Shown in pieces: positions 1 to 61,018 of a stretch of DNA of 61,018 nucleotides; positions within the stretch are counted from its first letter, which is position 1; each line of letters opens with the position of its first letter. The translations under genes and the position numbers were made by a program. This DNA comes from a virus (lineage: Duplodnaviria; Caudoviricetes). Location of the stretch: the IMG/VR virus record IMGVR_UViG_3300012209_000002, positions 1 through 61,018 of that record. The stretch is one strand, 5' to 3'. The notes below the pieces were generated by a model that was not told the DNA's origin, did no database searches, and saw only the letters and a program-made list of their open reading frames with translations.

Positions 1-123
1 ATCGCCAGCCCCTACGGCTGCACCTGGGAAGAGTTGCGCAACGATCTCAAGCTGATGTGGCGTGAAACCACCCGCGCGTCCAACTGGCTCATGACCGAAC
101 TCTACACGCGCGATTGCCGGCGC
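1..123. repeat. Terminal overlap (identical to 60896-61018); circular assembly
   Basis: First 123 nt ATCGCCAGCC...GCCGGCGC are identical to the last 123 nt, and an ORF reads through the junction. Confidence 0.97.
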
Positions 124-1035
124 GCGGGCGAGGAGAAGATGCCCCCGATGCAGCCCATCGACTTCTATACGGAGCTGAAGCGTTTCCCGGCATTGCCCCC
201 GCAGACCCGCGTGTCGCTGGCTCAAAGCTGCACCAAGAAATACAAAGCATTGCGTCGGGACGTGATCTGGACCTGTGCCAAGAGCCTGCCTAGTTTCCGT
301 TACCCCGTCCCTTTCCCCGTTCACAATCAGAGTTGGAGCGTGCGCATCGAAAAGGGACGGGCAATTCTCCGGGTGCGTATCGGCGAGGGCTGGCGCGAAC
401 TCCGTCTCAAGAGCGGCCCGCAATTCCGGCGACAGTACCGCTCCGTGCAACTGATAGCGAGAGGCGAGGCGATTACCGGCGAGGCAGCCATTTACCAGCG
501 TCAGTTCGAGGGGAAGTCCGCGCTCATGGTCAAGATGGTGGCTTGGTTGCCGCGTACTCCAGTCACGGGACTCAAGCCGGATTCGGTGTTACCGGTCTAC
601 ACACGGAAAGACGCGCTCCTGCAAGCGGTCAACACCGAGGACGAAGTACTGTGGACCTACAATGCGGATCACTTGCGGAGGTGGAGCGAGGAACATCGCA
701 AGACTCTTCAGAGATTGGCGGACGACAACAAATTCGAGGCCCGGCCAGTTCCGAGCTTCACGGATCGCCGTACCGCCCTGGTGCGGAAGTATCGCGACCG
801 CATGGACTCGGCCACGCACGAGATCGCCGCGCAACTTGCCTCGTACGCCGCCCGCCGCAAGTTCGCCGTAATGCGCTACGATGACACGGAGCGGGGGTTC
901 TGCGAGAGCCTGCCGTGGTACCGTTTAAAGCTACTGATCGAGCAAAAGTGCGAGGCGCTGGGGATACGATTTGAAGCAGCAGGCCCAAAAGAGTCGGAAA
1001 CGAAAGAATCGGAAGCGAGAGAAAACCAGCAGTGA
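1..1035 (+). CDS. 3' part of nuclease-dead TnpB/Cas12f-like RNA-guided DNA-binding protein (full gene 60680->junction->1035, 416 aa)
   Basis: C-terminal region follows the TnpB/Cas12f pattern: LVRKYRDRMDSATHEIAAQLASYAARRKFAVMRYDD (bridge helix/RuvC-II) and LPWYRLKLLIEQKCEALGIRF. The RuvC-I GxDxG is replaced by PVYTRKD, and the protein ends before the C-terminal Zn finger/RuvC-III. Confidence 0.75.
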   Translation: MASPYGCTWEELRNDLKLMWRETTRASNWLMTELYTRDCRRAGEEKMPPMQPIDFYTELKRFPALPPQTRVSLAQSCTKKYKALRRDVIWTCAKSLPSFRYPVPFPVHNQSWSVRIEKGRAILRVRIGEGWRELRLKSGPQFRRQYRSVQLIARGEAITGEAAIYQRQFEGKSALMVKMVAWLPRTPVTGLKPDSVLPVYTRKDALLQAVNTEDEVLWTYNADHLRRWSEEHRKTLQRLADDNKFEARPVPSFTDRRTALVRKYRDRMDSATHEIAAQLASYAARRKFAVMRYDDTERGFCESLPWYRLKLLIEQKCEALGIRFEAAGPKESETKESEARENQQ

Positions 1036-1083
1036 CGTGGATTGAAATCGTTGGCATCGTTTACCGCGATATACTGTTTTCGA

Positions 1084-1304
1084 AGGTCACCGAGGTTAGC
1101 AGACCTAGGGGCAGAAACGCTGAGAACGCTTGCCGACTCAGTATGTGATTGCCCAAATACCGTAAAGTGTTTCGGGATATCTCAGCAGTGTAAAAGCGAG
1201 CGGTCCTGGAAAACGGCGAAAGTCCAGAAGGCTTGAGACCTGCCGTTTCGGTGAAGCGAGAGGCCCGGCGGAAGAGAAAGAGCCGAAACCGCTCGCAAGA
1301 TCGG
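1084..1304 (+). ncRNA. Putative guide scaffold RNA copy 1
   Basis: Hairpin AGGTC/GACCT with loop ACCGA..; stem CTGAG/CTCAG enclosing invariant loop AACGCTTGCCGA (1125-1136); GGGATA; GCGAGCGGT (1196-1204) pairs with ACCGCTCGC (1288-1296). Confidence 0.65.
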
Positions 1305-1334
1305 AAAACAATGAGAAAGAATAGCTTTGAGATT

Positions 1335-1479
1335 ACTGTCCTACCGTACAGGACAGTTCCGACGACGCCGGGAACGCTTGCCGACCCGGTCGCTCGGATA
1401 GATGCTGGTAAGTCTTGGGATATGTGCGGCTTGCCGCGCCAGCCCTGAGAGCGAGCGAAAGCGAAAACGCTCGCTACGG
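1335..1479 (+). ncRNA. Putative guide scaffold RNA copy 2 with fused first repeat
   Basis: Hairpin ACTGTCCT/AGGACAGT with loop ACCGTAC; stem CCGGG/CCCGG enclosing AACGCTTGCCGA (1373-1384); GCTGG/CCAGC; GGGATA; anti-repeat GAGCGAGCG (1449-1457) pairing with CGCTCGC-TACGG (1468-1479). Confidence 0.75.
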
Positions 1480-1650
1480 GCCAAGAAATGGTCTTTCCGC
1501 CATCCACGCCAACGGACTGAGAGCGAGCGCAAACGAAAACGCCCGCTGCGGGTACCTGGCGAAAGCGTAAAACGCGCGTCGGATCGGCAGGAAGATCGCT
1601 ACGGGGTGCCAGCATTGGCCGCTCGCCGCGGGATGGAGAATTGAATTTAC
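1468..1650 (+). CRISPR. Non-canonical mini-repeat/guide array cognate to scaffold 2 (consensus CGCTCGCTACGG)
   Basis: Repeats at 1468 CGCTCGCTACGG, 1540 CGCCCGCTGCGG, 1593 AGATCGCTACGG and 1620 CGCTCGCCGCGG, separated by largely unique sequence. Confidence 0.5.
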
Positions 1651-1804
1651 AGCCCACCGATTAGGGCTAGGCTAGACATACGCTGGAAACGCTTGCCGAT
1701 TCAGTAGCTCTGGCGAAGGCTGGTCCCACTCCTCGGGTTAGTTCTCGTTGAGTGGGCGTAAACACTCCAGATACCTCTTGAAGGGAGCAGCCTGGGGAGC
1801 GACC
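1651..1804 (+). ncRNA. Putative guide scaffold RNA copy 3
   Basis: Hairpin AGCCC/GGGCT with loop ACCGATTA; GCTAGA/TCTGGC; stem CTGGA/TTCAG enclosing AACGCTTGCCGA (1688-1699); GGCTG/CAGCC; anti-repeat GAGCGACC (1797-1804). Confidence 0.75.
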
Positions 1805-1859
1805 TTTGACATTCCAGAGGCAGTTGCGGGGCACATCGCGGCTTGCGGCAACCTTGGCC

Positions 1860-2041
1860 GATCGCATCGGGACCGTCTCTATTTTCGAATCCCGGGAATG
1901 TCGCATCGGTTCAGGTCGCGTCGGGAGCCGCTTCGAGGCGCCGGTGCTATCCAACGCCAATCTATCTTTTCCCCGTCTCTTACTCCATACTTGCGGTTTT
2001 AGATCGTTAGGGTCGTTTCGGTCGGTTACGGGTCGCGTCGG
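1860..2041 (+). repeat. Cluster of GGTCGCNTCGG mini-repeats downstream of scaffold 3
   Basis: Copies at 1860, 1899, 1914, 2011 and 2031 (another at 2278), all on the + strand, irregular spacing. Confidence 0.65.
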
Positions 2042-2055
2042 GAGAGGTTGCCATC

Positions 2056-2277
2056 GTGTCGGTCAATGCGGATCTCTTGTGTCTATTCACCGAGTTGCGC
2101 CAGGAGATCCGCGATTCCAACCTCGAACGCCGGGAATCGGAGAGGGCCTTGGATCTTCGGTTGCGGCGGCTGGAAATTGCGCTAGTGCGGCATCGGGTGC
2201 GGGCGCGGATGTTAACAGCGGCGTGCGGGGCGGGAGCCAGCGCGGCCACGCACCTATTCGCGAAATATTACCATTAG
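2056..2277 (+). CDS. Small hypothetical protein, possibly lysis-associated
   Basis: 73 aa, GTG start after GGAGAGG; coiled N-terminus and weakly hydrophobic C-terminus. Confidence 0.55.
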   Translation: MSVNADLLCLFTELRQEIRDSNLERRESERALDLRLRRLEIALVRHRVRARMLTAACGAGASAATHLFAKYYH

Positions 2278-2327
2278 GGTCGCGTCGGGTAAGGTCACTC
2301 TGCGGAGTCGCCGAGGAGCATCTGAAG

Positions 2328-2588
2328 ATGAACATCGTGAATTCGGCAAAAGGCGAACTGGTGCAAACGGTTCTGCGCAAGATTGTCGACGGCAATACCG
2401 GCAGCACTCTGTTAGGCGGTGTGGCCGTGGCAATTCTGGCCTCGGGCGCCAGCTTTCCCGATTTGTTTTCGACGGATCAAAGTAAACTCGCGCATGCCTG
2501 GGGGCTGGCGATCGGCGGGGCGATTCTGGGCGTCTGGGGCTGGAAGATCGGCCGCAAGCCCGTCGCTCCCGCGCCGCCCGCTGTGTAG
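2328..2588 (+). CDS. Holin-like membrane protein
   Basis: 86 aa from ATG after GAGGAG; two hydrophobic helices (TLLGGVAVAILASGA, WGLAIGGAILGVWGW) and a basic C-terminus. Confidence 0.55.
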   Translation: MNIVNSAKGELVQTVLRKIVDGNTGSTLLGGVAVAILASGASFPDLFSTDQSKLAHAWGLAIGGAILGVWGWKIGRKPVAPAPPAV

Positions 2589-2870
2589 GTCGCTTCGGGG
2601 TGCGTCTGTCGCCTCGACATCGTCCTGATTTGCAGGTTGCTTCGTGCAAGGGCCGATTGGACGCAAAACTACTGTGATTTGGGCCGCTTCGGAATAAGCG
2701 TGCAGGTAACGTCGCTTCAGGATAATCCTCGCGTGGATTGCCGGTCGCCTCGGAGTATGCTGCCCGCCCCCGGTCGCTTCGGTGCTTTGATCGGCTTGGG
2801 TAGTCGCCTCGGGAACGAGGAATACGGGCCGCGCAGGTCGCTTTGTCTTAATGTACCGGCCATTGGACCG
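2588..2870 (+). CRISPR. Non-canonical array of nine 11-nt repeats (GGTCGCYTCGG) with mostly 17-23 nt spacers
   Basis: Repeats start at 2588, 2607, 2635, 2682, 2710, 2743, 2772, 2802 and 2836; spacers are 8, 17, 36, 17, 22, 18, 19 and 23 nt; intergenic between convergent genes. Confidence 0.65.
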
Positions 2871-2877
2871 ATAGCGG

Positions 2878-5202
2878 CTATTGAGCGGCGGCCTGCTTCG
2901 GTTCCGGTTGCTGCGATTTTGCCTCTTGTGCCACCCGCGCGGTTAGTGCCGTTGCTGCGGCGGTCCATGCTGGCGTGCGTACGGGCAGTGTCATAGCTTG
3001 AGTCAACAGTTTTGCTCCACCGGGGCTGAATAAGATCCGCGATCCCAACCAAGGCAAGCCGACGGCCCCGGTTATCTCCAATGCCGCTTGTCCCAATGCC
3101 GCTTGCTTAAACCCTCCGGTAATTGCCGTCACCAAAGCGTGCGCAACCGTTCCGTAAGCGCCTAATGCGTACCAACTGGAAGAAGTACCCGAAGGATTCA
3201 TAATCCGGCTGACCCGCTTGGATGCCAGCATGAACTTATCCAAATCCCCGGTGAGCTGCTTGCCGAACAACAGCTCCTTGGTTTCCGGCCCCAGTCTGTT
3301 CCAGTCGGCCGCAATCCCGGCGCTCCGTCCGAATCCGCCTTCTTTCGTGGATTTATCGATCAGCCCTTCCAGAAACGTGCGTCCGGTGGTTTTCAGTTCG
3401 TTTGGAGCGATCTTTCGCAACTCCCGCAAGGTATTCAACGAACGGTCGCCGCCTTGCACCAAGTTGTAGTAAAATTTCGCGGGCTCCTCGCTCATATCCT
3501 GAAACAGCTCATCCACGTTATGATAGGCACGCACCAATCGTCGGCCGGCTTGCAATTTGCCGAGAACGTCCGATCCCGCCCCCTGCACCGCTCGTTGGAA
3601 TTCGGTTTCTCCTTGCGCGATCGTCATCTTGGCGAGACGCTGCGATTGTGTGGAAAGATAAGGGCTGTCGCCATCGCGCGCCAGTGCTTTCACCGCGCTC
3701 AAGGTCCGGTCGAAATCCATGGCATTCATGAATTTCTTGTCCGAAGTCATCAATTCTTCGAGACTGCGCCATGCTGGGGAATTGGCCCGCCGCGCATCCG
3801 GCAAAGCCCGCTTCAGATCGTCGTAAACCGGCGCTAATCCTTGACGAATGGGCGCGAGATCGACGGGAGTTTCCAGAACGCTGTAAACGGGCACCTGGCG
3901 CGGCATTCCAGCGGGTGTCAGCGTGGCCAACGGGTTCGCTCCGGGCACCGTTTTCGTTCCGGTCTGCACGGTTTGTCGGTTAACCGCTGTCGATTGCCGC
4001 ACCTCGTTGTAGAGTCGATCGGCTTTCCCTTTTAACTGCGCGGTCAGACGAATTCGTCGCTGAATCAACGCCTGTCCCGCGCCGTAAGGATCGGTGACTT
4101 GTCCTCCTGCCCGCGCCGCCAGTTGCTTTTCTTTGCCGGCTAACGCTTCTTCGGTCGCCATACGGGCCTTACTGGCGCGGATGCCCGAGCCCGGCAGACT
4201 TTCCATAGTCTGCTCCACCCGCTTCAATCCGGGATGGCCCGTCCGCTGTCCAATGCTCAATGGCACGTCTTTCTCGATGGACTGAACGGCGGCTTCTTCC
4301 ACCGGGTTATAGACATTGCGCACGGCCGGTTCCAAACGGATTCCTTTGGGCAGCAATTTGGCCGCAGACGGCGCCAGCAATTCGAGCGTATGGGCCGCGC
4401 CCGCACCGTAGCGTCCTGCGCGAAAGTCTTCTCCGGCCTGTACCGCACCTGGACCGGCTATCGGCAAATACGATGCAGCGCGATATCCCAAACCGGCAAT
4501 CCCCGGCTCTTTCTTAGACTTCTCGTACATTTCCCGCTGCTGCCCGTACATCGCACGGCCGGCTTGAATCGGATTCTTCGCTGCCTCTCCGATCGCAGCC
4601 GGCAGATTGGAAATGTCCCCCCAGAGCGTACCCCAAAATCCTTTTGGCTGCATCGCTGTGTTTTGCAAGCCCAATTGCACGGCATTGGCTTTTTCCTTAA
4701 GGGGCAATGCTTTAAATGCCGGATCGTAGGCATCCAGCACCTTGATCTTTTCGATTCCAGGCAATTGCCGGAAGTTCGGGTCGGCGAAGATCTTACTCAA
4801 CTCGTCGGCCCCGCTTGACTGTTCGCCAGTTCTTTGCGTTTGATCCACGATTAGTTTGCCCGATTTGTCTACCAGCCGGTCGCCTTCCCAATGCGGCGCT
4901 TCCTCGGTCGCATACCGGGATTCTTTGGAAAAGTATCTGTGATACGGCGTTTTGTAGGTATCGGGGAAGTGTGCGCTGCCACCGCTCTTAACTCGCGTCT
5001 CCCGTTCCGCCATAGCTTTTGTGTCCCGAAAGAATCCGCGCATGTCGTAGTTAGAGGTCGGCGATTCGGTCCATGGGATCTTATTACTCTGCACCCAGAT
5101 TTGGAATTTCTTCTCTTCATCCGGCGGTAGTTTGGTGAGGTACGGTCCGGGTTTGGCAAAAGGAGACGGCGAAGTAAGTTGCTCGCTCAGTTCGTCAGCC
5201 AC
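2878..5202 (-). CDS. Putative virion ejection/internal (DNA transfer) protein
   Basis: 774 aa, A/G/Q-rich helical protein at the distal end of the virion operon, as in podoviruses. Confidence 0.55.
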   Translation of the reverse strand: MADELSEQLTSPSPFAKPGPYLTKLPPDEEKKFQIWVQSNKIPWTESPTSNYDMRGFFRDTKAMAERETRVKSGGSAHFPDTYKTPYHRYFSKESRYATEEAPHWEGDRLVDKSGKLIVDQTQRTGEQSSGADELSKIFADPNFRQLPGIEKIKVLDAYDPAFKALPLKEKANAVQLGLQNTAMQPKGFWGTLWGDISNLPAAIGEAAKNPIQAGRAMYGQQREMYEKSKKEPGIAGLGYRAASYLPIAGPGAVQAGEDFRAGRYGAGAAHTLELLAPSAAKLLPKGIRLEPAVRNVYNPVEEAAVQSIEKDVPLSIGQRTGHPGLKRVEQTMESLPGSGIRASKARMATEEALAGKEKQLAARAGGQVTDPYGAGQALIQRRIRLTAQLKGKADRLYNEVRQSTAVNRQTVQTGTKTVPGANPLATLTPAGMPRQVPVYSVLETPVDLAPIRQGLAPVYDDLKRALPDARRANSPAWRSLEELMTSDKKFMNAMDFDRTLSAVKALARDGDSPYLSTQSQRLAKMTIAQGETEFQRAVQGAGSDVLGKLQAGRRLVRAYHNVDELFQDMSEEPAKFYYNLVQGGDRSLNTLRELRKIAPNELKTTGRTFLEGLIDKSTKEGGFGRSAGIAADWNRLGPETKELLFGKQLTGDLDKFMLASKRVSRIMNPSGTSSSWYALGAYGTVAHALVTAITGGFKQAALGQAALEITGAVGLPWLGSRILFSPGGAKLLTQAMTLPVRTPAWTAAATALTARVAQEAKSQQPEPKQAAAQ

Positions 5203-5205
5203 GGT

Positions 5206-6957
5206 TTATTTTCCGATTCCACGCAGACGCAGGTACTCATCGGCGGTTTTGGGAGGTGGTCCCGGAGCACCCGTAGGTCCGCTCGGCCCAGATGGTCCTG
5301 TAGGTCCGCCCGGCCTTGGCCCCGCACCTTGCCCTGTATCTTGCGCCGGTCCCCCAATCTCCACCCCGCCTTCCGTCATCGCCGGACTGTTTCTGATCGA
5401 GTTCAGCCGGTATCCTAGGTTCTTGCGCGTCAAGTTCACCGCGGCCCGCAGCGTCTTGTCGTCCCAATCGCCGCTTAGAATCTTCATGGCCTGCCCGAGA
5501 CTTTTATCGGTAGGAGTGTTTCCTCCCTGATAGACTGTGGCGAGTTCGGATTGCAGATCGGTGATTTGGATATCGAGAAGCCGCGCTGCTTCCGCCGCCG
5601 GTTGCCCGAAAATTCCGCTTTTCGCCGTGTTCAATGCCAGTTTGTTGATAATCGGAAACTTGGTGCGCGGAACGGCATTGCGTAAATCTCCGAGCAAATC
5701 CTTACCCGGTTGTTGAGAATTGTCGATCAGGTCCAGACTTTCCACGGTGAAATCGACGGCTTGCCGCAATCGCACCTGCGTCGGTCCGTTCAAAGTCCGT
5801 ATCCAGATAGTTGTAGCCATCCAGTCTTTCTGGGCTTTGGCGAGATTGTATCCTTCCCTAGCCAGTTCGGCGGTCACGCGTCCCGCCATTCCTGTACGAC
5901 CCAACCCTGTCAGCATGGGCGACAGCAACCCATTTTTAATCCCTTGTGCGATGCTGGGCGCATCTTTCTCTGTCTGTTGCAAGTTGATGATGGACGCGGG
6001 CAGACGGTCGGCCTTGGTAATGGATTCCTGTCGCGCTTTGGCGTATGCCTCTGCAAACGGCATTCCTTTGGCCATGAATGCGTCGGTGCGAAATCTGGTA
6101 ATTGTAGCCATCTGATCGGATGCGTAATATTGGCGCGCCTGTTCTCCTTGTTCTGGAGTCAGCGGTAATTTCAATCCTGCCTTTTGTGCGTAAGCCTGAT
6201 GTAATTCCTCATCCTTCAGTTTGGCTTCGGACGGTACAGCGGGTTTATCGGTGCGAGTCCAGTTTTCCGGCGGTCGGAACGTTTTGCCCGCCATGCGATA
6301 CACATCGGGAGGATCGGTGGATAACTTGTCCAAAATTACGACGGTGCCATCCGGCTTGAGAAAATGCGCTTCCTTCTCGGAACCGGTTTTGGCCTCGACA
6401 TTGTACAGCTTGGCAATGCCGGTATCGTACTGATCCTTGGTAATTTGTCCGGTGCGTAGCGCCTCATCCAGCCGGTCCCGTCCCGTTTCGATTCCCATTT
6501 GCTGGGCAACGAACAAATCTTCGTCCGCCTGCCGCTGTACGATGCTTTTCTTTTGCGCTTCCCGTTGGGCTGTCTGCTGCGCGATTTCGTCGCGTTTGAC
6601 TCGTACCTGTTCCGGAGTAAGGCTGGCTCCCGCGGGCATGGGCGGCACCGCCGGTCCCTTCCCCACCGGGTCCAGTTGCCCTAGCCCCTTTCCCATGGCC
6701 TTTCCCGCGCCTGCCAATGTTCCCAACATGCCGAACAGCTTCCCCGAGTGCTGCTTCATCTGTGGGGGGCCTTCTTTCTGAAACAGCTTTTCGTAGTTCT
6801 GCAGCGCCCAGGCTTTGAGCACGGAAGGATCTTGACCGGCGGACAGCAATTCTTCGTCGGGCGCGGTGAACAGGTGTGTATACATCGCCGACTGGTTCAT
6901 CACGTCGCGTTGCTTGGACTCCTGATGCGTCCGAATCAGATTGGTGATGACACCCAT
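5206..6957 (-). CDS. Putative ejection/internal virion protein with collagen-like C-terminal GXX tract
   Basis: 583 aa; GPTGPSGPSGPTGAPGPPP near the C-terminus; operon position. Confidence 0.55.
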   Translation of the reverse strand: MGVITNLIRTHQESKQRDVMNQSAMYTHLFTAPDEELLSAGQDPSVLKAWALQNYEKLFQKEGPPQMKQHSGKLFGMLGTLAGAGKAMGKGLGQLDPVGKGPAVPPMPAGASLTPEQVRVKRDEIAQQTAQREAQKKSIVQRQADEDLFVAQQMGIETGRDRLDEALRTGQITKDQYDTGIAKLYNVEAKTGSEKEAHFLKPDGTVVILDKLSTDPPDVYRMAGKTFRPPENWTRTDKPAVPSEAKLKDEELHQAYAQKAGLKLPLTPEQGEQARQYYASDQMATITRFRTDAFMAKGMPFAEAYAKARQESITKADRLPASIINLQQTEKDAPSIAQGIKNGLLSPMLTGLGRTGMAGRVTAELAREGYNLAKAQKDWMATTIWIRTLNGPTQVRLRQAVDFTVESLDLIDNSQQPGKDLLGDLRNAVPRTKFPIINKLALNTAKSGIFGQPAAEAARLLDIQITDLQSELATVYQGGNTPTDKSLGQAMKILSGDWDDKTLRAAVNLTRKNLGYRLNSIRNSPAMTEGGVEIGGPAQDTGQGAGPRPGGPTGPSGPSGPTGAPGPPPKTADEYLRLRGIGK

Positions 6958-6966
6958 GGAACGCTC

Positions 6967-7164
6967 CTAATAGCGCTTGGCGGCTTGCCGTTTGCGGCGG
7001 CCGCTGCTCATATCGTAGGTGTCCCGGTATGCCTCGCCCAGCGGGTCTTCCGATGCCGGTTCCTGCCGCTTCTTGCCGAGTTTGTCCGCGATGCTGATGG
7101 CATCTCCAATGGCACCGCTGTCTTTTGCCTTTCCCATCGTTGCAATATCTCTCAGCGCACCCAT
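6967..7164 (-). CDS. Small hypothetical protein
   Basis: 65 aa MGALRDIATMGK..., RBS AAGGGAG, tightly packed in the operon. Confidence 0.55.
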   Translation of the reverse strand: MGALRDIATMGKAKDSGAIGDAISIADKLGKKRQEPASEDPLGEAYRDTYDMSSGRRKRQAAKRY

Positions 7165-7175
7165 AGTTGTCTCCC

Positions 7176-7916
7176 TTAAATCAGAGCGTTGATTCCCTGC
7201 GCGACCGTGTTGAAATTGTGCGCGGTCCCACCCTGAATATTGATTCCCATCTTTTCCAGAGCGGCCTGAATGGCGGATTCCAGTGAAGCCAACCCTTGCC
7301 CGGTCTGCTGCGAGCCGATCCCCGCTACGCCCAATCCCAATTGCCCTTGCAACCCGCCCAGTTGTCCCAATCCCTGCGCCGCCGCCGGTTGCAACCCCAG
7401 CACCGCGTTGCCCACCATGCCCGCCTGCGCGAACGGCAGCTCGCTCATGACCTGGCTCCGGTACCCGCCCATCGGCAGATTCGCATCGGCGCCCTGCCCC
7501 GCGCGCTGAAACTGTTGCCCGATCAGGGCCGAGGTCGGAGCCAGTGCCTCGGTCATAGTTTTGGGATCGCCGGAAAGCAGTTTCGTGTAAAAATCCACGC
7601 TGGGCTGCATGGTTTGGAAGCCCTGACCGACTCCGCCAAGTCCCATCGCGGTAGTAGCTCCTCCTTGATTGAGCAGGTTTTCGCCGGTTGTGCCCGTCAA
7701 ATTGGTTAAGGAGCGGAAGAACTGAGTTAGCGAATCTCCACTGACAGGTTGCGTGGCCACGTTGCCCACCATCGGATTGGCGGGAGTTGTGCCGCTTGGG
7801 AAGATTCCGAACGGATTTCGCCACCAGGGAGGACCGTAGTCACTGGGTTGAGAAGAAGGCAGCCCGCTCGATACGGGACTTCCGCCCAGCCCTTGTCCCG
7901 ACAATGGATCGGCCAT
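7176..7916 (-). CDS. Putative small ejection protein (G/Q-rich)
   Basis: 246 aa with GLGQLGGLQGQLGLG-type low complexity typical of podoviral DNA-injection proteins. Confidence 0.55.
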   Translation of the reverse strand: MADPLSGQGLGGSPVSSGLPSSQPSDYGPPWWRNPFGIFPSGTTPANPMVGNVATQPVSGDSLTQFFRSLTNLTGTTGENLLNQGGATTAMGLGGVGQGFQTMQPSVDFYTKLLSGDPKTMTEALAPTSALIGQQFQRAGQGADANLPMGGYRSQVMSELPFAQAGMVGNAVLGLQPAAAQGLGQLGGLQGQLGLGVAGIGSQQTGQGLASLESAIQAALEKMGINIQGGTAHNFNTVAQGINALI

Positions 7917-7959
7917 CGGACTCCTATCGGGGGAATTCCGATTTTATCCCGTTTTAGCC

Positions 7960-8475
7960 CTAAGTGCTTGATTTCGGCTGGTTCAGGCTGGACAACAGCC
8001 CGCCCCAGTTCGGTGTAGCCGCGGCAATCAGACGCTTGGCCGCCTTTTCGTACTTCTCCCGCAATCCGTCTACAACTGGGGAGTACCGCGCTGGATCGAG
8101 ATTATCCTCCAAATCGGCCAGCTTCACGATCATGGCATCGGGCATCGTGCAAATCAACTCAATGTACATTTCGTAGTTGCAATTATCGGCATTACGACTG
8201 AGACGCAATACCGTGTCTGTAATGCGTTTACTGAAGCCGATCTGCTTCAGAAGTTCATAAGTAACCCAAGTATCTTCAAGGGTGTCGTGCAGAACTCCGC
8301 AAATCTGCAGTTCTAGATCGTAGCCCTTTTCGGCCAAACGGCGCATCACACCGAGCGGATGCAGGATGAAGGGTTTGCCTTGCCCATCGACTTGCCCGGC
8401 ATGAGCAGCAGCAGCAAGTCCAATGGCAGTGCTTAACCAATCGACCGTGGTTCTAGGGGGATTGAAACCAGTCAT
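7960..8475 (-). CDS. HD-domain RelA/SpoT-type small alarmone hydrolase-like protein
   Basis: AHAGQVDGQGKPFILHP, VLHDTLEDT and VKLADLEDN motifs of the SpoT/Mesh1 HD domain. Confidence 0.85.
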   Translation of the reverse strand: MTGFNPPRTTVDWLSTAIGLAAAAHAGQVDGQGKPFILHPLGVMRRLAEKGYDLELQICGVLHDTLEDTWVTYELLKQIGFSKRITDTVLRLSRNADNCNYEMYIELICTMPDAMIVKLADLEDNLDPARYSPVVDGLREKYEKAAKRLIAAATPNWGGLLSSLNQPKSST

Positions 8476-8484
8476 TTTCAGATT

Positions 8485-8748
8485 TTACTGTACCGGCACA
8501 TATCCTCGTGGCCCGCCCCACTCCCGCTCAATGTGCCGTAGTCTTCGCCACTCCGCGTGCAGCCAGTCCTCACCCGGTATCCAGATGGCCTCGTGATCTG
8601 TCACCAGCCCCTTCCGATGCCGGTAAGCCGCTGCGCATCGCTGCCGGTTGAGCGCCGCGAAACAGTCCTCGCATAACCGTCCGATTTGCGCCCGGCGCCG
8701 CTTCGAACAACGGCCGCGCGCTCCGCACACCTTGCAACTTACCATCAC
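8485..8748 (-). CDS. Small Cys-rich hypothetical protein
   Basis: CKVC...CEDC pairs; coupled to the upstream stop. Confidence 0.5.
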   Translation of the reverse strand: MMVSCKVCGARGRCSKRRRAQIGRLCEDCFAALNRQRCAAAYRHRKGLVTDHEAIWIPGEDWLHAEWRRLRHIEREWGGPRGYVPVQ

Positions 8749-55211: not shown

Positions 55212-55430
55212 ATGACCGTCCAAGAGTACGCCCGCGAACGCTTCCGGAAATGGATCGAGAAAATAGACGCCGAAAACGCGCTGCCTCTGTTTGTGTACGC
55301 AACCGATGCGGGCGGAAGACCGCTGCTGCTGGGAGACGGCAACATGTCCATGGAAGAACTCCGCGCGCTGGTGCGGGATCTGGCGCAGATTATCGAGCAC
55401 GCGCAGTTCGTGAAAGGAATCGTGCAATGA
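55212..55430 (+). CDS. Hypothetical protein
   Basis: MTVQEYARERF..., coupled to the next gene. Confidence 0.5.
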   Translation: MTVQEYARERFRKWIEKIDAENALPLFVYATDAGGRPLLLGDGNMSMEELRALVRDLAQIIEHAQFVKGIVQ

Positions 55431-56299
55431 AGACAGTCCAGCAATCCGAGCCGGTCGAGATCCAGTCCGCCCCCGCGCTGGACGGCCCCGGGGAAACTTT
55501 CCCTGCCGTCCAGCAATTCAAGCAGGAGTTAGACAGATACGACCGCGCCGAGATCCTGAGTACGATCCGCCAGACCGTCTGCCGCGGAGCCTCGGACCCG
55601 CAGTTTCGCATGTTCATCGAGGTCTGCAAAAGCACCGGGCTCGATCCGTTTCTCAAAGAGATCTGGTTCGTACCCGGCGTTGGCATCATGGCCGGCCGCG
55701 ACGGTTACCTGCGCGTGGCCAACCGGCACCCCCAATTCGACGGCATGAAAACGGTGGTCGAGCGGGATGCCAAGAACGTGCCCATTAAGGCCGTGTGCGA
55801 GGTCTGGAGAAAAGACAGGGCGCACTCGGTCTCGTGCGAAGCGTATTTCAACGAGTACGTAAAACCGACACCCTCCTGGAAGCAGTATCCGAGCGCGATG
55901 ATCGGCAAAGTCGCGGAGGTCATGGCCCTGAAGCGGAGTTTCAGCATCAACGGGGTGGTGACCGAGGAGGAGATCGGCAGAAACCCGCCCGCGCCCGTGG
56001 GAGTGCCCGTGGAGATCGAGGCTGCGCCGGAGCCACCCGTGCAAATACCGTCCGATTGGACTGTCGGTCGCGAACCGGCTTACACAGTCGCTTCAGAGAA
56101 ATCGGAAGAACCGCGCTCTCAATGGGGCAACCGTGGCGCCATGCGAAAAGCGTTCGCCGCCGAACAGACGCGCGTGGGCGAGGAAGTCTACCGCGCCGCG
56201 CTCGACAAATGGCGCGCGCGCGATCTGCTCTGGCCGAACGCCCAAGCCGCGGAAGAGTGCTATCGCTGGCTGAGGGAGCAACCGGAGAAATCTGCATGA
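55427..56299 (+). CDS. bet: RecT/Bet single-strand annealing protein
   Basis: FIEVCKSTGLDPFLKEIWFV..GRDGYLRVA..HPQFDGM..WKQYPSAMIGKVAE..LKRSF. Confidence 0.9.
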   Translation: MKTVQQSEPVEIQSAPALDGPGETFPAVQQFKQELDRYDRAEILSTIRQTVCRGASDPQFRMFIEVCKSTGLDPFLKEIWFVPGVGIMAGRDGYLRVANRHPQFDGMKTVVERDAKNVPIKAVCEVWRKDRAHSVSCEAYFNEYVKPTPSWKQYPSAMIGKVAEVMALKRSFSINGVVTEEEIGRNPPAPVGVPVEIEAAPEPPVQIPSDWTVGREPAYTVASEKSEEPRSQWGNRGAMRKAFAAEQTRVGEEVYRAALDKWRARDLLWPNAQAAEECYRWLREQPEKSA

Positions 56300-56733: not shown

Positions 56734-57216
56734 ATGACAATTGCATTGCTGGCTGCCAAATTGATACAGAGCTTCGAGGGGGTCAAGCTGCGTTCGTATT
56801 TCGATAAAACCGGGAAAGTATGGACCGTGGGCTGGGGTCATACGGGTTTCGATGTCGAGCCGGGCATGGAAATCACTTTAGAGGAAGCAACAGGATATTG
56901 GATGGATGACAGCGCTCCCCTGATTGCGTTAGTCGAAGACCGCCCCTTGATCGAGGCCGCGGCTTTAGTCAGCTTTGGCTATAACTGCGGGATCGGAGCC
57001 TTGAAGCGCGTGCTCTCGGGCGAGATCGAGGTCACCCACGAGGAGTTCACGGTGCGCGACTCGCGGGCGCCCTATGGCGAGTTGTCGGGCGGGGTGAAAC
57101 TGGCGGGGTTGTACGCGCGGCGGCAACTGGAGGCGGCCTTGATCGAGGCGAGCCGGGAAATGCTGAGCCAGGAACCGATCCGCGAAATGCTACGGGGCGG
57201 GAAGGGGCCGACATGA
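56734..57216 (+). CDS. Endolysin, GH24 lysozyme
   Basis: FEGVKLRSYFD..VWTVGWGHT, ALVSFGYNCG, GLYARRQLE. Confidence 0.9.
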   Translation: MTIALLAAKLIQSFEGVKLRSYFDKTGKVWTVGWGHTGFDVEPGMEITLEEATGYWMDDSAPLIALVEDRPLIEAAALVSFGYNCGIGALKRVLSGEIEVTHEEFTVRDSRAPYGELSGGVKLAGLYARRQLEAALIEASREMLSQEPIREMLRGGKGPT

Positions 57217-57635
57217 TCCGCCCATTGACCCGCGCCGAAATCCGCCGCATGAAAAAGCTCTGGGCCAAAGTGCCGCCGATTACCGGCTGTAAGGGCCTCT
57301 GTTGGGAATCCTGCGCCAACGCTCCCATGCATCCCGTCGAAGCGCGGTATCTGGGAGCGAAGTATCCACGGCAAACTGGAGGCGTGGAACGGCTGTTGGA
57401 ACTGCCGATTTTGGGGCCGCGCGCCGAGACGCTGGAACCGGCCGACTGTCCGTTTCTCGTGAACCGGCGATGCTCGATCTACGAAGATCGCCCGCTAGTG
57501 TGCCGATTGTTCGGCCAGCCTTTATTGGGTCACTTGCGATGTCCATACGGCTGCGACACGACGCATAAGCTAACCGCACAGCAAGGCGCGGATTTGATGA
57601 CAGCGATGGCGCAAGCGGGAAACGAGGTTTCGTAA
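57213..57635 (+). CDS. YkgJ-like CxxCxxCC metal-cluster protein
   Basis: CKGLCWESC..CPFL..CSIYEDRPLVCRLFG. Confidence 0.85.
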   Translation: MIRPLTRAEIRRMKKLWAKVPPITGCKGLCWESCANAPMHPVEARYLGAKYPRQTGGVERLLELPILGPRAETLEPADCPFLVNRRCSIYEDRPLVCRLFGQPLLGHLRCPYGCDTTHKLTAQQGADLMTAMAQAGNEVS

Positions 57636-58330: not shown

Positions 58331-59110
58331 ATGATCCTCATCGACCGCCGCGAAGACGAGCAATTGACCCGCGAACTGGCTCGCTTCCACTTGCCCTTCG
58401 CCTGCGTCGAGTTGCCCTGGGGCGATTGCTCGTTCGCGGGCAAAGGGCCGGACGGTCCGCTCCTGATCGGCTTCGAACGCAAGCGCCTGCCCGATCTGAT
58501 CCATTCCATGCAGGACCGCCGCCTTGCCGGTTCCCAGCTCGTGGGCATGCGCCAGCTCTATGCCCGTGTCGGCCTGGTGGTGGAAGGACTGTGGCGCCCC
58601 GGCCAGGAAGGCACGATCGAGGTGCAGGATGGGCATGGAGAATGGGTCGAGTATTATCATCGGAAAAAGCAGGGGATTGCCTGGCGCCAGATCGACTCGT
58701 TCCTGCAATCGCTGGTGGAGCTGTGCGGGGTGGAGGTATGGCGCACGGCCACCGTGCGGGAGACGGCGCACTTGTACTGTTCCCGGTACCGCTGGTGGCA
58801 GAAAGACTATGCGCTACATCGCAGCCACCGGCAGATCCACGCGCTCGATCCACTGGCGGCGCGCGGGGGAAGAGTGGAATTCGGGCGCGAACCCAATGCG
58901 ATCGTGCGAGTCGCGGCGCAGATCCCCGGCATCGACCGGAAGGCGTGGTCAATTGGGGAACAGTTTGGGTCGGTGTGGGAAATGACCGATGCTTCGATAG
59001 AGCGCTGGGAAAGCGTGTGGTGGGACGACGGCAAAGGGAAGCGCAAACAGTTCTCGCGGGAGAGCGCGAGAAAGATCGTAGCGTGGTTGCGGGGATTGGA
59101 AGTCGCATGA
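58331..59110 (+). CDS. ERCC4-family structure-specific nuclease
   Basis: ILIDRRE, GDCSF, FERKRLPDL..S, LVVEG, HhH-like QIPGIDRKA. Confidence 0.88.
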   Translation: MILIDRREDEQLTRELARFHLPFACVELPWGDCSFAGKGPDGPLLIGFERKRLPDLIHSMQDRRLAGSQLVGMRQLYARVGLVVEGLWRPGQEGTIEVQDGHGEWVEYYHRKKQGIAWRQIDSFLQSLVELCGVEVWRTATVRETAHLYCSRYRWWQKDYALHRSHRQIHALDPLAARGGRVEFGREPNAIVRVAAQIPGIDRKAWSIGEQFGSVWEMTDASIERWESVWWDDGKGKRKQFSRESARKIVAWLRGLEVA

Positions 59111-59114
59111 GATC

Positions 59115-59192
59115 GGTCGCGTTGGTGTATCGAGCCGTGGACGGAGCAGAAGTCGCGTCGGAAAGTTCTCGGATGGAATTTGGTTGCGTCGG
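59115..59192 (+). repeat. Mini-repeats upstream of scaffold 4
   Basis: GGTCGCGTTGG at 59115, AGTCGCGTCGG at 59151, GGTTGCGTCGG at 59182. Confidence 0.55.
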
Positions 59193-59244
59193 GTTGATCG
59201 AGGAACGGATTTCGGGGAGCGAAGCAAGGATATTTACGGACTAC

Positions 59245-59392
59245 GGGCTACCGAACAAGCCCAGGCCGACTAACGCCGGGAACGCTTGCCGACCCGGTCG
59301 CGTTGGCGAAGGCGGTTCTCCGGAAAACCGGGGATGAAACGCTTGGGATAACCCGGCTGGAACCAACGCCGGGTCCGCCCCAGGAGTGACTG
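59245..59392 (+). ncRNA. Putative guide scaffold RNA copy 4
   Basis: Hairpin GGGCT/AGCCC with loop ACCGAACA; GCCGAC/GTTGGC; CCGGG/CCCGG enclosing AACGCTTGCCGA (59281-92); GGCGG/CCGCC; GGGATA; anti-repeat GAGTGACTG (59384-92). Confidence 0.75.
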
Positions 59393-59528
59393 ACTACCTC
59401 GCGGGAGGATTCGGCAGTGAACTCGGGTTGGAGTGTGGTATCGAAGAACGAGTTGAGTCGGGACCAGTAACGAGTCGCTAAGATTTAGTTACTTCGGAAT
59501 GTTCGTTCAAGTGCAAAAAGGAGAGCGC

Positions 59529-59921
59529 ATGGCATCGCCATCGAAAGACAGATTGAGACGCGCGAACGCGAGCAAACTGACTCCTGTCGAGTCCATGGAG
59601 AATCTGGAGACGCGCAAGCGCCTGGAGTCCCTGTTGCGGGAAGCGCTTGTCCTCAAGGTCCGTATGTCCGCCGACGAGGAGGATTTGGAGCGCATCAAGA
59701 CCGAGCTGGGCGGTCTCGTGCAAGCGCTCAATCTGGCTGGGGTGCGCTCGGGCCTGGTCGGGTTCGAGTGCTCGGGATGGCAGCGGCGCAGCAATCTGCA
59801 AAAGTCTCTGCTGGTGGATCTGCTCTCGCGTTATGGAGCCCCGCTGGAGGAGCTGGAGCGGTGCTACACGACCGGGGAGCCGTATCTGATGACCAGATTG
59901 CATGTGTTCGATGCGGAGTAG
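59529..59921 (+). CDS. Hypothetical protein
   Basis: RBS AAGGAG; 130 aa. Confidence 0.6.
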   Translation: MASPSKDRLRRANASKLTPVESMENLETRKRLESLLREALVLKVRMSADEEDLERIKTELGGLVQALNLAGVRSGLVGFECSGWQRRSNLQKSLLVDLLSRYGAPLEELERCYTTGEPYLMTRLHVFDAE

Positions 59922-59925
59922 AAAA

Positions 59926-60183
59926 ATGAACATTGAAAACATAAAACCTGGCGAGAAACCCGATTGTGTGATTGCGTTAAATAAAGACGATCCGTGTTAT
60001 CGGCCATCCGAGGGCGTAATCGACAATAAGTGCTTGCTATGCGAAGCCACTGTAGCACTGGATCGGGCTAGCCAAGCATTGATGCCTTTGCCGGTTTATT
60101 GTTTGACATGTTTCATGCAATTCAGAAACGCCAATGTTGTGATTAGAAGAGCAGCACCCGTGCATGTGTTCGATGCGGAGTAA
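59926..60183 (+). CDS. Small Cys-rich protein (inserted cassette)
   Basis: CLLC..CLTC; AT-rich; bounded by 22-nt direct repeats. Confidence 0.55.
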   Translation: MNIENIKPGEKPDCVIALNKDDPCYRPSEGVIDNKCLLCEATVALDRASQALMPLPVYCLTCFMQFRNANVVIRRAAPVHVFDAE

Positions 60184-60184
60184 C

Positions 60185-60228
60185 AGTCGCTTCGGTAAAA
60201 ACGATGTGGAGTAGGACAGTCATTTCGG
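60185..60228 (+). repeat. Two mini-repeats cognate to scaffold 4
   Basis: AGTCGCTTCGG at 60185 and AGTCATTTCGG at 60218, 22-nt spacer. Confidence 0.55.
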
Positions 60229-60679: not shown

Positions 60680-61018
60680 ATGTCCGTGAAATCCCCCGAA
60701 TCCCCCGAGCCCGATGTCGTCGCAGTCGAAGTCGTCTGCTGCGATTGCCGGAAGCGCCGCAAGACCAAACTCACCCCGGCCGGCAATCCGCGCACGCCCA
60801 TGGGCTGGCACAAGCACGACAAGGACGCCGAATCCGTGGTCTATTGCCCCGACTGCTGGGCCAAGCGCTATCTGCTCCGCGCCGTCGCCATGCCCATCGC
60901 CAGCCCCTACGGCTGCACCTGGGAAGAGTTGCGCAACGATCTCAAGCTGATGTGGCGTGAAACCACCCGCGCGTCCAACTGGCTCATGACCGAACTCTAC
61001 ACGCGCGATTGCCGGCGC
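60680..61018 (+). CDS. 5' part of the nuclease-dead TnpB/Cas12f-like protein, with N-terminal zinc finger
   Basis: MSVKSPESPEPDVVAVEVVCCDC...YCPDCWAKRYLLRAVAMPIASPYG runs in frame into position 1; missed by the ORF track. Confidence 0.8.
   Translation, partial: MSVKSPESPEPDVVAVEVVCCDCRKRRKTKLTPAGNPRTPMGWHKHDKDAESVVYCPDCWAKRYLLRAVAMPIASPYGCTWEELRNDLKLMWRETTRASNWLMTELYTRDCRR
60896..61018. repeat. Terminal overlap identical to 1-123
   Basis: Exact 123-nt match. Confidence 0.97.

Follow-up and report, generated by a model that had tools for sequence, protein, structure and literature searches.

Nuclease-dead relatives of TnpB and Cas12f that work as RNA-guided transcription factors are established, both as TldR proteins (PMC13622181) and as dead Cas12f (dCas12f) acting with sigma-E (PMC13472631). 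According to the available portions of the second source, a separate dCas12f cluster, associated with CRISPR and free of rpoE, has a covarying RNA upstream of the array, and in an example from Chitinophagaceae a spacer matching DNA close to an efflux operon led to a proposal of repression. For the sigma-linked lineage, the available part of PMC10691335 describes loss of RuvC-III, reduction of the array to half a direct repeat (DR) beside the trans-activating CRISPR RNA (tracrRNA), fusion, and duplication of the scaffold-guide unit, as well as large inactivated branches within Cas12f. PMC11656645, also as far as available, deals with interference-defective CRISPR systems of mobile elements that block transcription (type IV, Cas12m), and with phage CRISPR directed against host defence. 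We analysed here a stretch of 61,018 nucleotides from a Caudoviricetes virus (positions 1 to 61,018 of IMG/VR record IMGVR_UViG_3300012209_000002; hereafter the window), in which a gene running across the two ends encodes a Cas12f/TnpB-type effector accompanied by repeated structured elements and very short repeats. With a probability of about 0.65 in our judgement, this phage carries a self-contained RNA-guided DNA-binding module that acts as a natural multiplexed silencer.

The effector gene is found in two parts:

60680..61018, + strand: 5' part of the effector gene, residues 1-113, with a CxxC...CxxC zinc ribbon (from the open reading frame (ORF) and homology).
1..1035, + strand: remainder of the effector gene, with a WED/REC/RuvC-like fold (from the ORF, profile and model).

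The ends of the window are identical over 123 bases (1-123 = 60896-61018), and the record is classed as complete with direct terminal repeats. As this overlap falls inside the effector gene, it was left by the assembly, and the genome is circular or circularly permuted, with a length of about 60.9 kb. The ORF 60680..61018 runs on as 1..1035 to give a joined protein of 416 amino acids (aa), P0001, and the gene is uninterrupted in a copy of the same phage from another assembly (locus L013, 100% identity), in agreement with the junction-spanning gene proposed by an earlier annotation made from the letters alone (the sequence-only reading).

The relationship of P0001 to known effectors was studied by profile and by fold. 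In Pfam, the main part of the protein had no match and its N-terminus gave just a sub-threshold zinc-ribbon match. A profile of 55 homologues compared with the PDB detected a Cas12f (9nzq_A) with E 8.8e-8, profile positions 109-379 aligning on residues 80-369 of a chain of 433, followed by 9i8y_A (E 8.4e-5), the nuclease-deactivated Cas12f 9n9c_A (E 0.0048) and AsCas12f entries (E 0.03-0.07). The AlphaFold2 model of P0001 (predicted local distance difference test score 92.1, predicted template modelling (TM) score 0.83) matched 82 PDB chains with E<=0.001 in Foldseek, in such a way that AsCas12f was the best (8j12_A, E 5.2e-19, TM 0.64) and the top matches were all Cas12f with TM 0.60-0.65. 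The dCas12f 9n9c_A was matched with E 1.9e-15 and 15% identity by fold, the TnpB chains 8iaz and 8h1j were weaker (3.4e-11 and 1.8e-9), and Cas12k and other Cas12 types followed. The Cas12f model of PADLOC also matched P0001 (E 1.6e-6, model positions 5-345 of 399). By fold and profile, P0001 is thus nearer to Cas12f than to TnpB. The sequence-only reading had limited the TnpB/Cas12f likeness to the C-terminal half and had suggested a fold comparison with both families as a check; the Cas12f likeness came out of this comparison strengthened, and it extends to the whole protein.

Four cysteines (C20, C23, C56 and C59) form the N-terminal zinc ribbon, kept in 53-55 of the 55 homologues and located upstream of the region that aligns with AsCas12f and dCas12f. 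In the HMMER alignment, the aspartate of the RuvC-I motif GVDMG of OsCas12f falls on residue 272, which is a tyrosine (Y272) in the window; among homologues this column is R29/H9/Y4/S3/V3/A2, the listed residues covering 50 of the 55 and none of them being Asp or Glu. The position of the RuvC-II glutamate corresponds to D366, in a column with D45/N9/E1 over the 55 homologues. In the alignment to 9nzq, which leaves 14 profile positions uncovered, the last chain residue reached is 369 of 433, and only 49 aa follow D367 in P0001 (median 48 across homologues), with no CxxC pair among them in P0001. As judged from these alignments, the C-terminal zinc ribbon (TNB) and RuvC-III are missing. These data support that P0001 is a nuclease-dead, C-terminally truncated effector of the Cas12f/TnpB type, and the loss of the RuvC-I Asp together with the whole zinc-ribbon/RuvC-III end leads us to expect DNA binding without cutting. 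The N-terminal finger, the lack of the RuvC-I Asp and the lack of the C-terminal end had all been read from the letters before, and they stand.

P0001 belongs to a large family, with 292 clusters at 90% identity reaching E<=0.001 among the candidates scored; at 50% identity, 1216 representatives reach E<=0.001 and 673 reach E<=1e-30, and the 150 listed are mostly of about 400 aa. None of the family proteins listed has a functional name or a Pfam domain. Relatives with 31-64% identity are encoded on 10 viral contigs and on 12 further genome contigs, mostly labelled as Acidobacteriota (Bryobacterales, Paludibaculum, Solibacteraceae and others); their loci are referred to below by L numbers. The effector gene is the sole gene common to the window and the other loci, and as the neighbours differ between loci, the module moves between elements.

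The motif AACGCTTGCCGA appears four times in the window, always on the + strand (1125, 1373, 1688 and 59281), against 0.44 expected. A covariance model of the surrounding element, with 131 positions and 28 pairs, gave 25 matches in 292 kb, all of them on the strand of the gene and just 3' of it, two in L004 and four in the window:

1067-1212, + strand: scaffold copy 1, the weakest (55 bits; covariance model).
1321-1451, + strand: scaffold copy 2 (82 bits; covariance model), whose last helix runs into the first full repeat.
1634-1799, + strand: scaffold copy 3 (62 bits; covariance model).
59228-59386, + strand: scaffold copy 4 (78 bits; covariance model), between an ERCC4-like gene (58331-59110) and the ORF 59499-59921.

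Searches with nhmmer located the scaffold directly 3' of the gene, and on its strand, in 20 of 21 testable relatives, with L025 as the exception; the testable set leaves aside L008, which ends inside the gene, and L013, which is the same phage. In an alignment fitted to the covariance model, and thereby leaning towards it, 86.2% of the cells are paired (62.7% after shuffling and 26.6-45.6% in slid controls), the covariation score is 0.600 (0.195 after shuffling, with 0 of 500 shuffles reaching the observed value, and at most 0.14 in slid controls), and 26 of the 28 pairs show compensatory changes (a mean of 18.8 after shuffling and 11-18 in slid controls). RNAalifold on the raw MAFFT alignment recovered just the first helix, P1, with the others out of register, and realignment to the covariance model fixed the register. 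Single-sequence folds of all 25 copies gave independently the same build: a hairpin P1 with the loop ACCG, a long-range helix P2 around the hairpin P3 with its conserved loop ACGCUUGCCG, an A-rich linker, and a helix P5 around the hairpin P6. The four copies of the window differ by compensatory changes in P2 (GGGCAG/UUGCCC, UCCGA/UCGGA, GCUAGA/UCUGGC and GCCGAC/GUUGGC). These comparisons support that the repeated element, of which the sequence-only reading had listed three copies and a fourth at 59245, is a genuine scaffold RNA, which covaries and accompanies the gene throughout the family.

The short repeats were also studied. GTCGCNTCGG occurs ten times in the window, always on the + strand (1.36 expected), and TCGCNTCGG 12 times on the + strand and never on the - strand. 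With up to 2 mismatches, GGTCGCNTCGGG was found 29 times on the + strand and 13 times on the - strand of the whole genome; the segment 59100..2900, which is 7.8% of the genome, holds 21 on + and 1 on -, leaving 8 on + and 12 on - for the other 56 kb. Block shuffles (mean 19.8, max 29) reach the + count of the whole genome, and what distinguishes GGTCGCNTCGGG is its clustering and strand bias. The units identified in this segment are the following:

1443..1552, + strand: mini CRISPR array, with repeat R1 at 1443-1480, a 34-nt spacer at 1481-1514 and repeat R2 at 1515-1552 (repeat family, folding).
1553..1632, + strand: degenerate units, with half-repeat-like ends GATCGCTACGGG (1594) and GCTCGCCGCGGG (1621) (motif search).
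1860..2042, + strand: half repeats at 1860, 1899, 1914, 2011 and 2031, with unique sequence between them (motif search).
2056..2588, + strand: half repeats around two small ORFs, at 2031 before the first, 2278 between both and 2588 at the stop of the second.
2682..2847, + strand: half-repeat array B, at 2682, 2710, 2743, 2772 and 2802 (spacing 28, 33, 29 and 30), with a degenerate unit near 2836 as well.
59115..59193, + strand: half repeats at 59115, 59151 and 59182, upstream of scaffold copy 4 (motif search).
60185..60196, + strand: isolated half repeat just past the stop of the ORF 59902-60183 (motif search).

The two full repeats are 38-nt hairpins that fold at -18.0 (R1) and -11.2 kcal/mol (R2). 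Of the more than 20 ultra-short + strand repeats claimed by the sequence-only reading, the number and the strand hold, and the window has these two full repeats in addition.

The origin of the half repeats can be traced in the relatives. Ordinary arrays are found 3' of the scaffold in nine loci (L005, L006, L007, L009, L011, L012, L015, L020 and L025), each with 4-9 repeats of about 36 nt that recur with a period of 65-75 and separate unrelated spacers. In all but L025, these repeats form a hairpin with a 3' arm ending in ...CGGG, GAGG or similar. Seven of eight array-less loci show one hairpin followed by unique sequence, which we read as a putative natural single guide. L004, L003 and L017 have instead a 10-12-nt unit in many copies, and its sequence is that of the hairpin's 3' arm (the half repeat): in L004, GGTCAC[CT]TCGGG occurs 32 times on the + strand and never on the - strand, and in L003, GGAAGCTGCGGG does so 14 and 0 times. 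Half-repeat spacings are mostly of 20-33 nt, and full repeats are also kept in L004 (8395-8560) and in L017 (7290-7470). Both array types are present in the genome of L004, where the first scaffold copy is followed by the 32-copy array, and full hairpin repeats come after a second copy (8268-8560 region), which lies 2 kb further downstream. In L003, a short tandem repeat of GTGTATGTT-like units (6935-6965) comes straight after the last repeat unit.

By its motifs, the window is assigned to the half-repeat type, like L003, L004 and L017, and its short repeats are recognisably the remnant of a normal repeat, at 12 nt too short for CRISPR finders, as the sequence-only reading had supposed. They are best read as putative minimal handles of CRISPR RNA (crRNA) type, a reading that follows from their identity with the 3' arm of the relatives' full repeats, their location on one strand, the regular arrays in L003, L004 and the window, and their complementarity to an arm on the scaffold side. 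That homologues keep scaffolds and repeats next to the gene, which had been put forward as a check, was found for the scaffold in the 20 relatives mentioned, for arrays in nine loci and for half repeats in three. The growth of arrays is illustrated by a second, longer copy of the L015 array (2887-3280), found at the start of another contig of the same genome (L027 1-540, G001:C11), in which a block of three spacers is duplicated and the copies have diverged (variants of spacers 4 and 5). This suggests that the arrays change by duplication and drift, in agreement with the lack of cas1/cas2, and as this copy stands at a contig start, the assembly was probably interrupted by an array longer than the one recovered.

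After P6, the scaffold carries the 5' arm of the first repeat, which is complementary to the half repeat of the lineage, and both change together:

L003: half repeat GGAAGCU.GCGG; scaffold-side 5' arm CCGC.GUA.AGCUUCC.
L004: half repeat GGUCAC.UU.CGGG; scaffold-side 5' arm CCCG.UAGG.GUGACC.
L017: half repeat GCUUCGGG; scaffold-side 5' arm CUCGGAGC.
Window: half repeat UCGC.NU.CGGG; scaffold-side 5' arm CCCU.GAGA.GCGA.

The duplexes between half repeat and anti-repeat have energies of -14 to -18.5 kcal/mol, with 0-11 of 500 shuffled half repeats being as good, and the cognate arm is the best of its row for three of the four lineages, the L017 unit in this test being offset by a few bases.

Targets were found for one relative, L015, which lies near the end of a 508-kb contig in an Acidobacteriota genome of 8.1 Mb. 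Its spacers 3 and 4 have 36/36 matches elsewhere in this same genome, and a third match, 0.8 kb from the first, is of 21/23, or 24/28 when realigned for the unit after the last repeat. In spacer orientation, the 5' flanks of the three sites are TTT, TTC and TTC (TTY at 3/3), and both the side and the kind of this flank are those expected for a type V effector, with the guide thus located on the 3' side of the repeat's 3' arm. The spacer 4 site is in an XRE/capH-like helix-turn-helix (HTH) gene, the first of an operon that also encodes a Cas4-like nuclease (PADLOC E 1.8e-92) of the PD-(D/E)XK type and a class II Argonaute (E 8.7e-59). This region (L030 3-1818, G001:C6), where a truncated integrase N-terminus and a DUF6431 gene adjoin, looks like a defence island. 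The other two sites fall within genes that have no annotation, with an excisionase-like HTH gene and a tyrosine integrase next to them. That exact targets in its own genome are tolerated fits a binder that does not cut, and the types of target fit counter-defence and competition between mobile elements. The island of L015 itself (4704-8532) has an XRE regulator, two tyrosine integrases, a BrnA-type antitoxin and a HigB/HigA-like fused ORF; as this module is not in an obvious phage, the family appears to be carried by more than one kind of mobile element.

Further matches were detected in other relatives. The last irregular unit of L007 (6834-6887) has a 33/37 match, starting 17 nt from the repeat end, in a genome of an Acidobacteriota class (L058, G377:C159:780-816); it is the only match of this array in 401 genomes searched, and it may represent a protospacer that has decayed or a piece of a gene that was captured. 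Among the single-guide loci, three that belong to different genomes, L016 (~7393-7412), L019 (~7415-7434) and L022 (~7393-7412), have near-identical sequence right after the repeat, (T)GATCGCAATCAGG, and GATCGGAATCAAGG in L019, which suggests a putative conserved target. Against those three genomes, this guide start gave 13-nt matches with no extension and no TTY flank (20 sites with flanks read), and their excess over a reversed-pattern control looks like coding bias.

With these components, the module could work as follows. The Cas12f-type effector would bind DNA without cutting it, and the scaffold of about 130 nt, in four diverged copies, would play the role of a tracrRNA or omega-RNA, its 3' side acting as anti-repeat through the 5' arm of the family's hairpin repeat. 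Guides would come in two forms, the classic repeat-spacer units (1443-1552) and about 18 half repeats of 12 nt, each of which, being the 3' arm alone, is followed by about 12-40 nt of unique sequence. The half repeat would pair with the anti-repeat arm supplied by the scaffold, and the unique sequence 3' of it would be the guide, as in type V crRNAs with their 5' handle and 3' guide. By analogy with L015, the complex would recognise DNA beside 5'-TTY, and once bound it would keep host defence genes or competing mobile elements from being transcribed; control of transcription is what the missing nuclease residues, together with the self-genome targets of L015, point to. In the multiplexed DNA-binding system supposed by the sequence-only reading, the dead effector, the covarying scaffold and the crRNA-type handles are in place, and no target was found for the guides of the window.

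Several observations weigh against this proposal. D366 and D367 are conserved acidic residues, which by sequence would leave residual chemistry possible. The first 5-6 bases of the anti-repeat are also the 3' strand of P5 (94% paired, with strong covariation), and as P5 and the half-repeat duplex use the same bases they are mutually exclusive, which makes the pairing scheme tentative: the half repeat may displace the 5' strand of P5, to which it is similar in sequence, or the RNAs may pair in another way. In addition, the half repeat of the window pairs equally well with the arms of L004 and L017, which resemble its own. The sequencing runs with this phage include no listed RNA run. The target evidence of L015 comes from one genome bin and one relative; the arrays of L020 and L025 matched just themselves in their own genomes, and that of L011 had no match in 137 genomes. 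For the window, the 32 nt after each of the 22 repeat ends gave longest matches of 10-14 nt in the phage itself, both 14-nt matches being repeat-to-repeat and the background of 2000 random 32-mers peaking at 10-12 nt. Its guides had nothing significant in the bin that holds the phage (best non-self E 0.81) or, with a best E of 9.3e-4 per genome, in the 137 genomes from the order of the relative, guides of 12-20 nt not being placeable by search without a known host, and its two full spacers had 0 exact matches in viral and metagenome contigs. When 56 spacers (from the arrays of the nine relatives and the two of the window) were compared with the window and the studied loci, only chance-level matches of 11-18 nt appeared.

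Finally, several half repeats directly border genes: 2031 precedes the GTG at 2056 by 26 nt, 2278 and 2588 are at the stops 2277 and 2588, and 60185 comes after the stop 60183. Such locations fit a processing or regulatory site too. The 12-nt motifs could then be cis signals of a phage operon, for RNA processing or stability, ribonucleoprotein binding, or promoter- or terminator-like functions, with guides made only from the scaffold-linked full repeats, and that no target was found in the phage and the bin for the sequences after half repeats agrees with it. We consider this unlikely: the motif is the 3' arm of the family's repeat, it changes between lineages with the anti-repeat, and it forms dense one-strand arrays in non-coding DNA of L004 (32) and L003 (14), to which array B of the window (2682-2847) is equal in regularity. 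A simple promoter/terminator scan of the locus gave nothing beyond shuffles and nothing at the half repeats.

The silencing module that we favour has also to be compared with one that activates transcription, by recruiting RNA polymerase to promoterless sites of the phage programme or of host genes, like the sigma-E-linked dCas12f of Bacteroidota. The latter is the same kind of truncated dCas12f, and according to the available portions of PMC13472631 and PMC10691335 it also has tandem scaffold-guide units. This possibility is clearly less probable than that of cis signals, as no Sigma70_r2 match was found in the window, the guides of the window have no match in their own genome beyond chance, the exact targets of L015 are inside coding regions and not upstream of genes, and P0001 has little similarity to the dCas12f of known structure (profile E 0.0048; 15% identity by fold). 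More improbable still is a decoy against host CRISPR, in which the tracrRNA, crRNA or Cas proteins of a host type V system would be sequestered by the dead effector and its repeat-like RNAs, like RNA anti-CRISPRs built from single repeat units do; many repeats of the window are indeed solitary, but in the one host genome examined the repeat is found only in the two arrays of the element, beside no host cas locus, the relatives keep diverse spacers with exact TTY-flanked protospacers, and four conserved scaffold copies would be needless. Least probable of all is that the dead effector brings another enzyme, for example the ERCC4-type nuclease or the RecT recombinase, to chosen DNA sites, where it would cut or recombine in trans. 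The ERCC4-domain gene (58331-59110), directly followed by scaffold copy 4, and the RecT gene (55250-56299) do lie in the same + strand block, but neighbours are not conserved, the effector gene alone being common to the loci, and L015 coexists with its exact self-genome targets.

Regarding the setting of this silencing module, near-identical phage DNA was found in soil metagenomes of four studies, with no array variants in their contigs. L013, a 61,037-bp contig, is in a bin labelled as an actinomycete genus; this label is probably a binning error, as the relatives all point to Acidobacteriota. The annotated ORFs of the window include a large terminase and a primase/helicase, and none of them is a fliC or opp neighbour. 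The + strand block across the junction has a helicase, the RecT-type annealing protein, a lysozyme and the ERCC4-domain protein, and a 140-aa ORF with a CxxCxxCC putative metal-binding domain (57213-57635) shares its first 4 bases with the end of the lysozyme gene. Family profile searches of the window gave no match to Cas1, Cas2, Sigma70_r2 (whose positive control matched in 10 of 14 genomes), tyrosine integrase or Y1 transposase (Y1_Tnp), the last search covering the transposase only, with transposon ends not sought; the absence of cas1/cas2, transposase and sigma factor noted before was thus reproduced. The tRNA and Rfam scans of the whole window were empty, with 0 matches to Rfam 15 at gathering scores. 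Other features near the arrays are the following:

2056-2277, + strand: small ORF of 73 aa inside the downstream stretch (ORF list).
2329-2588, + strand: small ORF of 86 aa inside the downstream stretch (ORF list).
2878-5202, - strand: convergent gene closing array B (ORF list).

The first small ORF has no Pfam or PHROG match, and the second is hydrophobic, with a GAGGAG site upstream, its product being likely a membrane protein, as predicted from the sequence. The stretch after the effector gene, which the sequence-only reading took as about 1 kb of non-coding DNA, holds three of the scaffold copies, as it said, and these two small ORFs as well.

These results bring the idea of a nuclease-dead TnpB/Cas12f regulator, demonstrated in bacteria only recently, to phages and genomic islands of abundant soil bacteria. 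If the half-repeat arrays guide, they would exceed all known natural guide arrays in compactness, with about 25-30 nt per guide, which would explain why CRISPR finders miss such loci and could inspire dense multiplexed guide designs for a DNA binder of 416 aa. The spacer match to the Argonaute operon points to a kind of counter-defence that is hardly documented, in which a phage-borne CRISPR interference silences host immunity. Our wider proposal is tentative, and we would give it somewhat less than even odds: a large family of dead Cas12f in phages and islands would run multiplexed CRISPR interference, with arrays shrunken in some lineages to 12-nt half repeats, guides of 12-20 nt, a scaffold arm supplied in trans, growth by duplication and drift without Cas1-Cas2, and non-cutting silencing of defence operons (Argonaute, in one case) and of rival elements.

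In the literature searched we found no phage-borne family of dead Cas12f in Acidobacteriota-type genomes, no dense 12-nt half-repeat arrays dependent on the arm of a separate scaffold, and no spacer aimed at an Argonaute operon. The sequence-only reading had not recognised the architecture as described; within the literature searched this holds for the dense half-repeat arrays and the phage setting, and not for RuvC-III loss, the half DR and duplicated units, known for the sigma-E lineage from the available portions of PMC10691335 and PMC13472631. As far as these same portions go, the dCas12f-sigma-E system ('Sigma-TnpB' in PMC10691335) resembles the window in its Cas12f-derived effector without the zinc ribbon/RuvC-III end, in the guide 3' of a structured scaffold, in its tandem scaffold-guide units and in the half-DR remnants proposed in its history, and its solved dCas12f (9n9c) is among the best fold matches. 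It differs in that our family is borne by phages and islands in Acidobacteriota-type genomes, has no sigma factor match in the phage, keeps true CRISPR arrays in many members, has an extra N-terminal zinc ribbon, is distant by profile (E 0.0048), and has its detected targets inside genes of a defence operon and of a mobile element. The Chitinophagaceae-type cluster shares a dead Cas12f beside CRISPR arrays and a covarying RNA upstream of the array, and the available part of its description (PMC13472631) mentions neither a phage setting nor half-repeat arrays. Compared by description only, our family may either belong to this cluster or represent an independent inactivation.

TldR (10.1101/2023.11.30.569447; PMC13622181), as described in the portions available, is likewise a compact RNA-guided repressor derived from a TnpB-type nuclease with its RuvC function lost, in some cases prophage-encoded and with short effective guides. 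By contrast, it has one omega-RNA-type guide and fixed targets (flagellin, oppA), whereas the protein of the window is nearer to Cas12f and is accompanied by arrays and multiple scaffolds. Virus mini-arrays and single repeat units, in the available part of PMC11656645, are similar in being short or solitary repeat units of phages in conflicts between mobile elements, but they use the Cas proteins and the repeat of the host, whereas here the effector, the scaffold and the half repeats are the element's own. From the same part of that source, Cas12m (type V-M) and type IV systems of plasmids and prophages share an interference-defective effector that blocks the transcription of rivals from mobile elements. 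Cas12m is, however, larger and a distant fold match (E about 1e-7, TM about 0.35). Its arrays are ordinary ones, and it is not known to use a tracr-like scaffold.

With the Cas12f (type V-F) nucleases, the family shares the fold, a scaffold that would be of tracr type, repeats of about 36 nt and a T-rich 5' flank of the target (in L015 only). Among the traits of type V-F, a CRISPR array beside the effector is present in nine relatives, and as two full repeats plus half repeats in the window, and the putative anti-repeat would be the 3' side of the scaffold, which is complementary to the half repeat, yet that arm is also paired within the scaffold. The differences are the incomplete catalytic triad, the loss of TNB and RuvC-III, and the lack of a Cas1/Cas2 match in the window. 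The window family is thus outside the sigma-E system, as it has no sigma factor, outside TldR, as it is Cas12f-like and has arrays, and outside active type V-F, as it has neither the triad, nor the TNB, nor adaptation genes.

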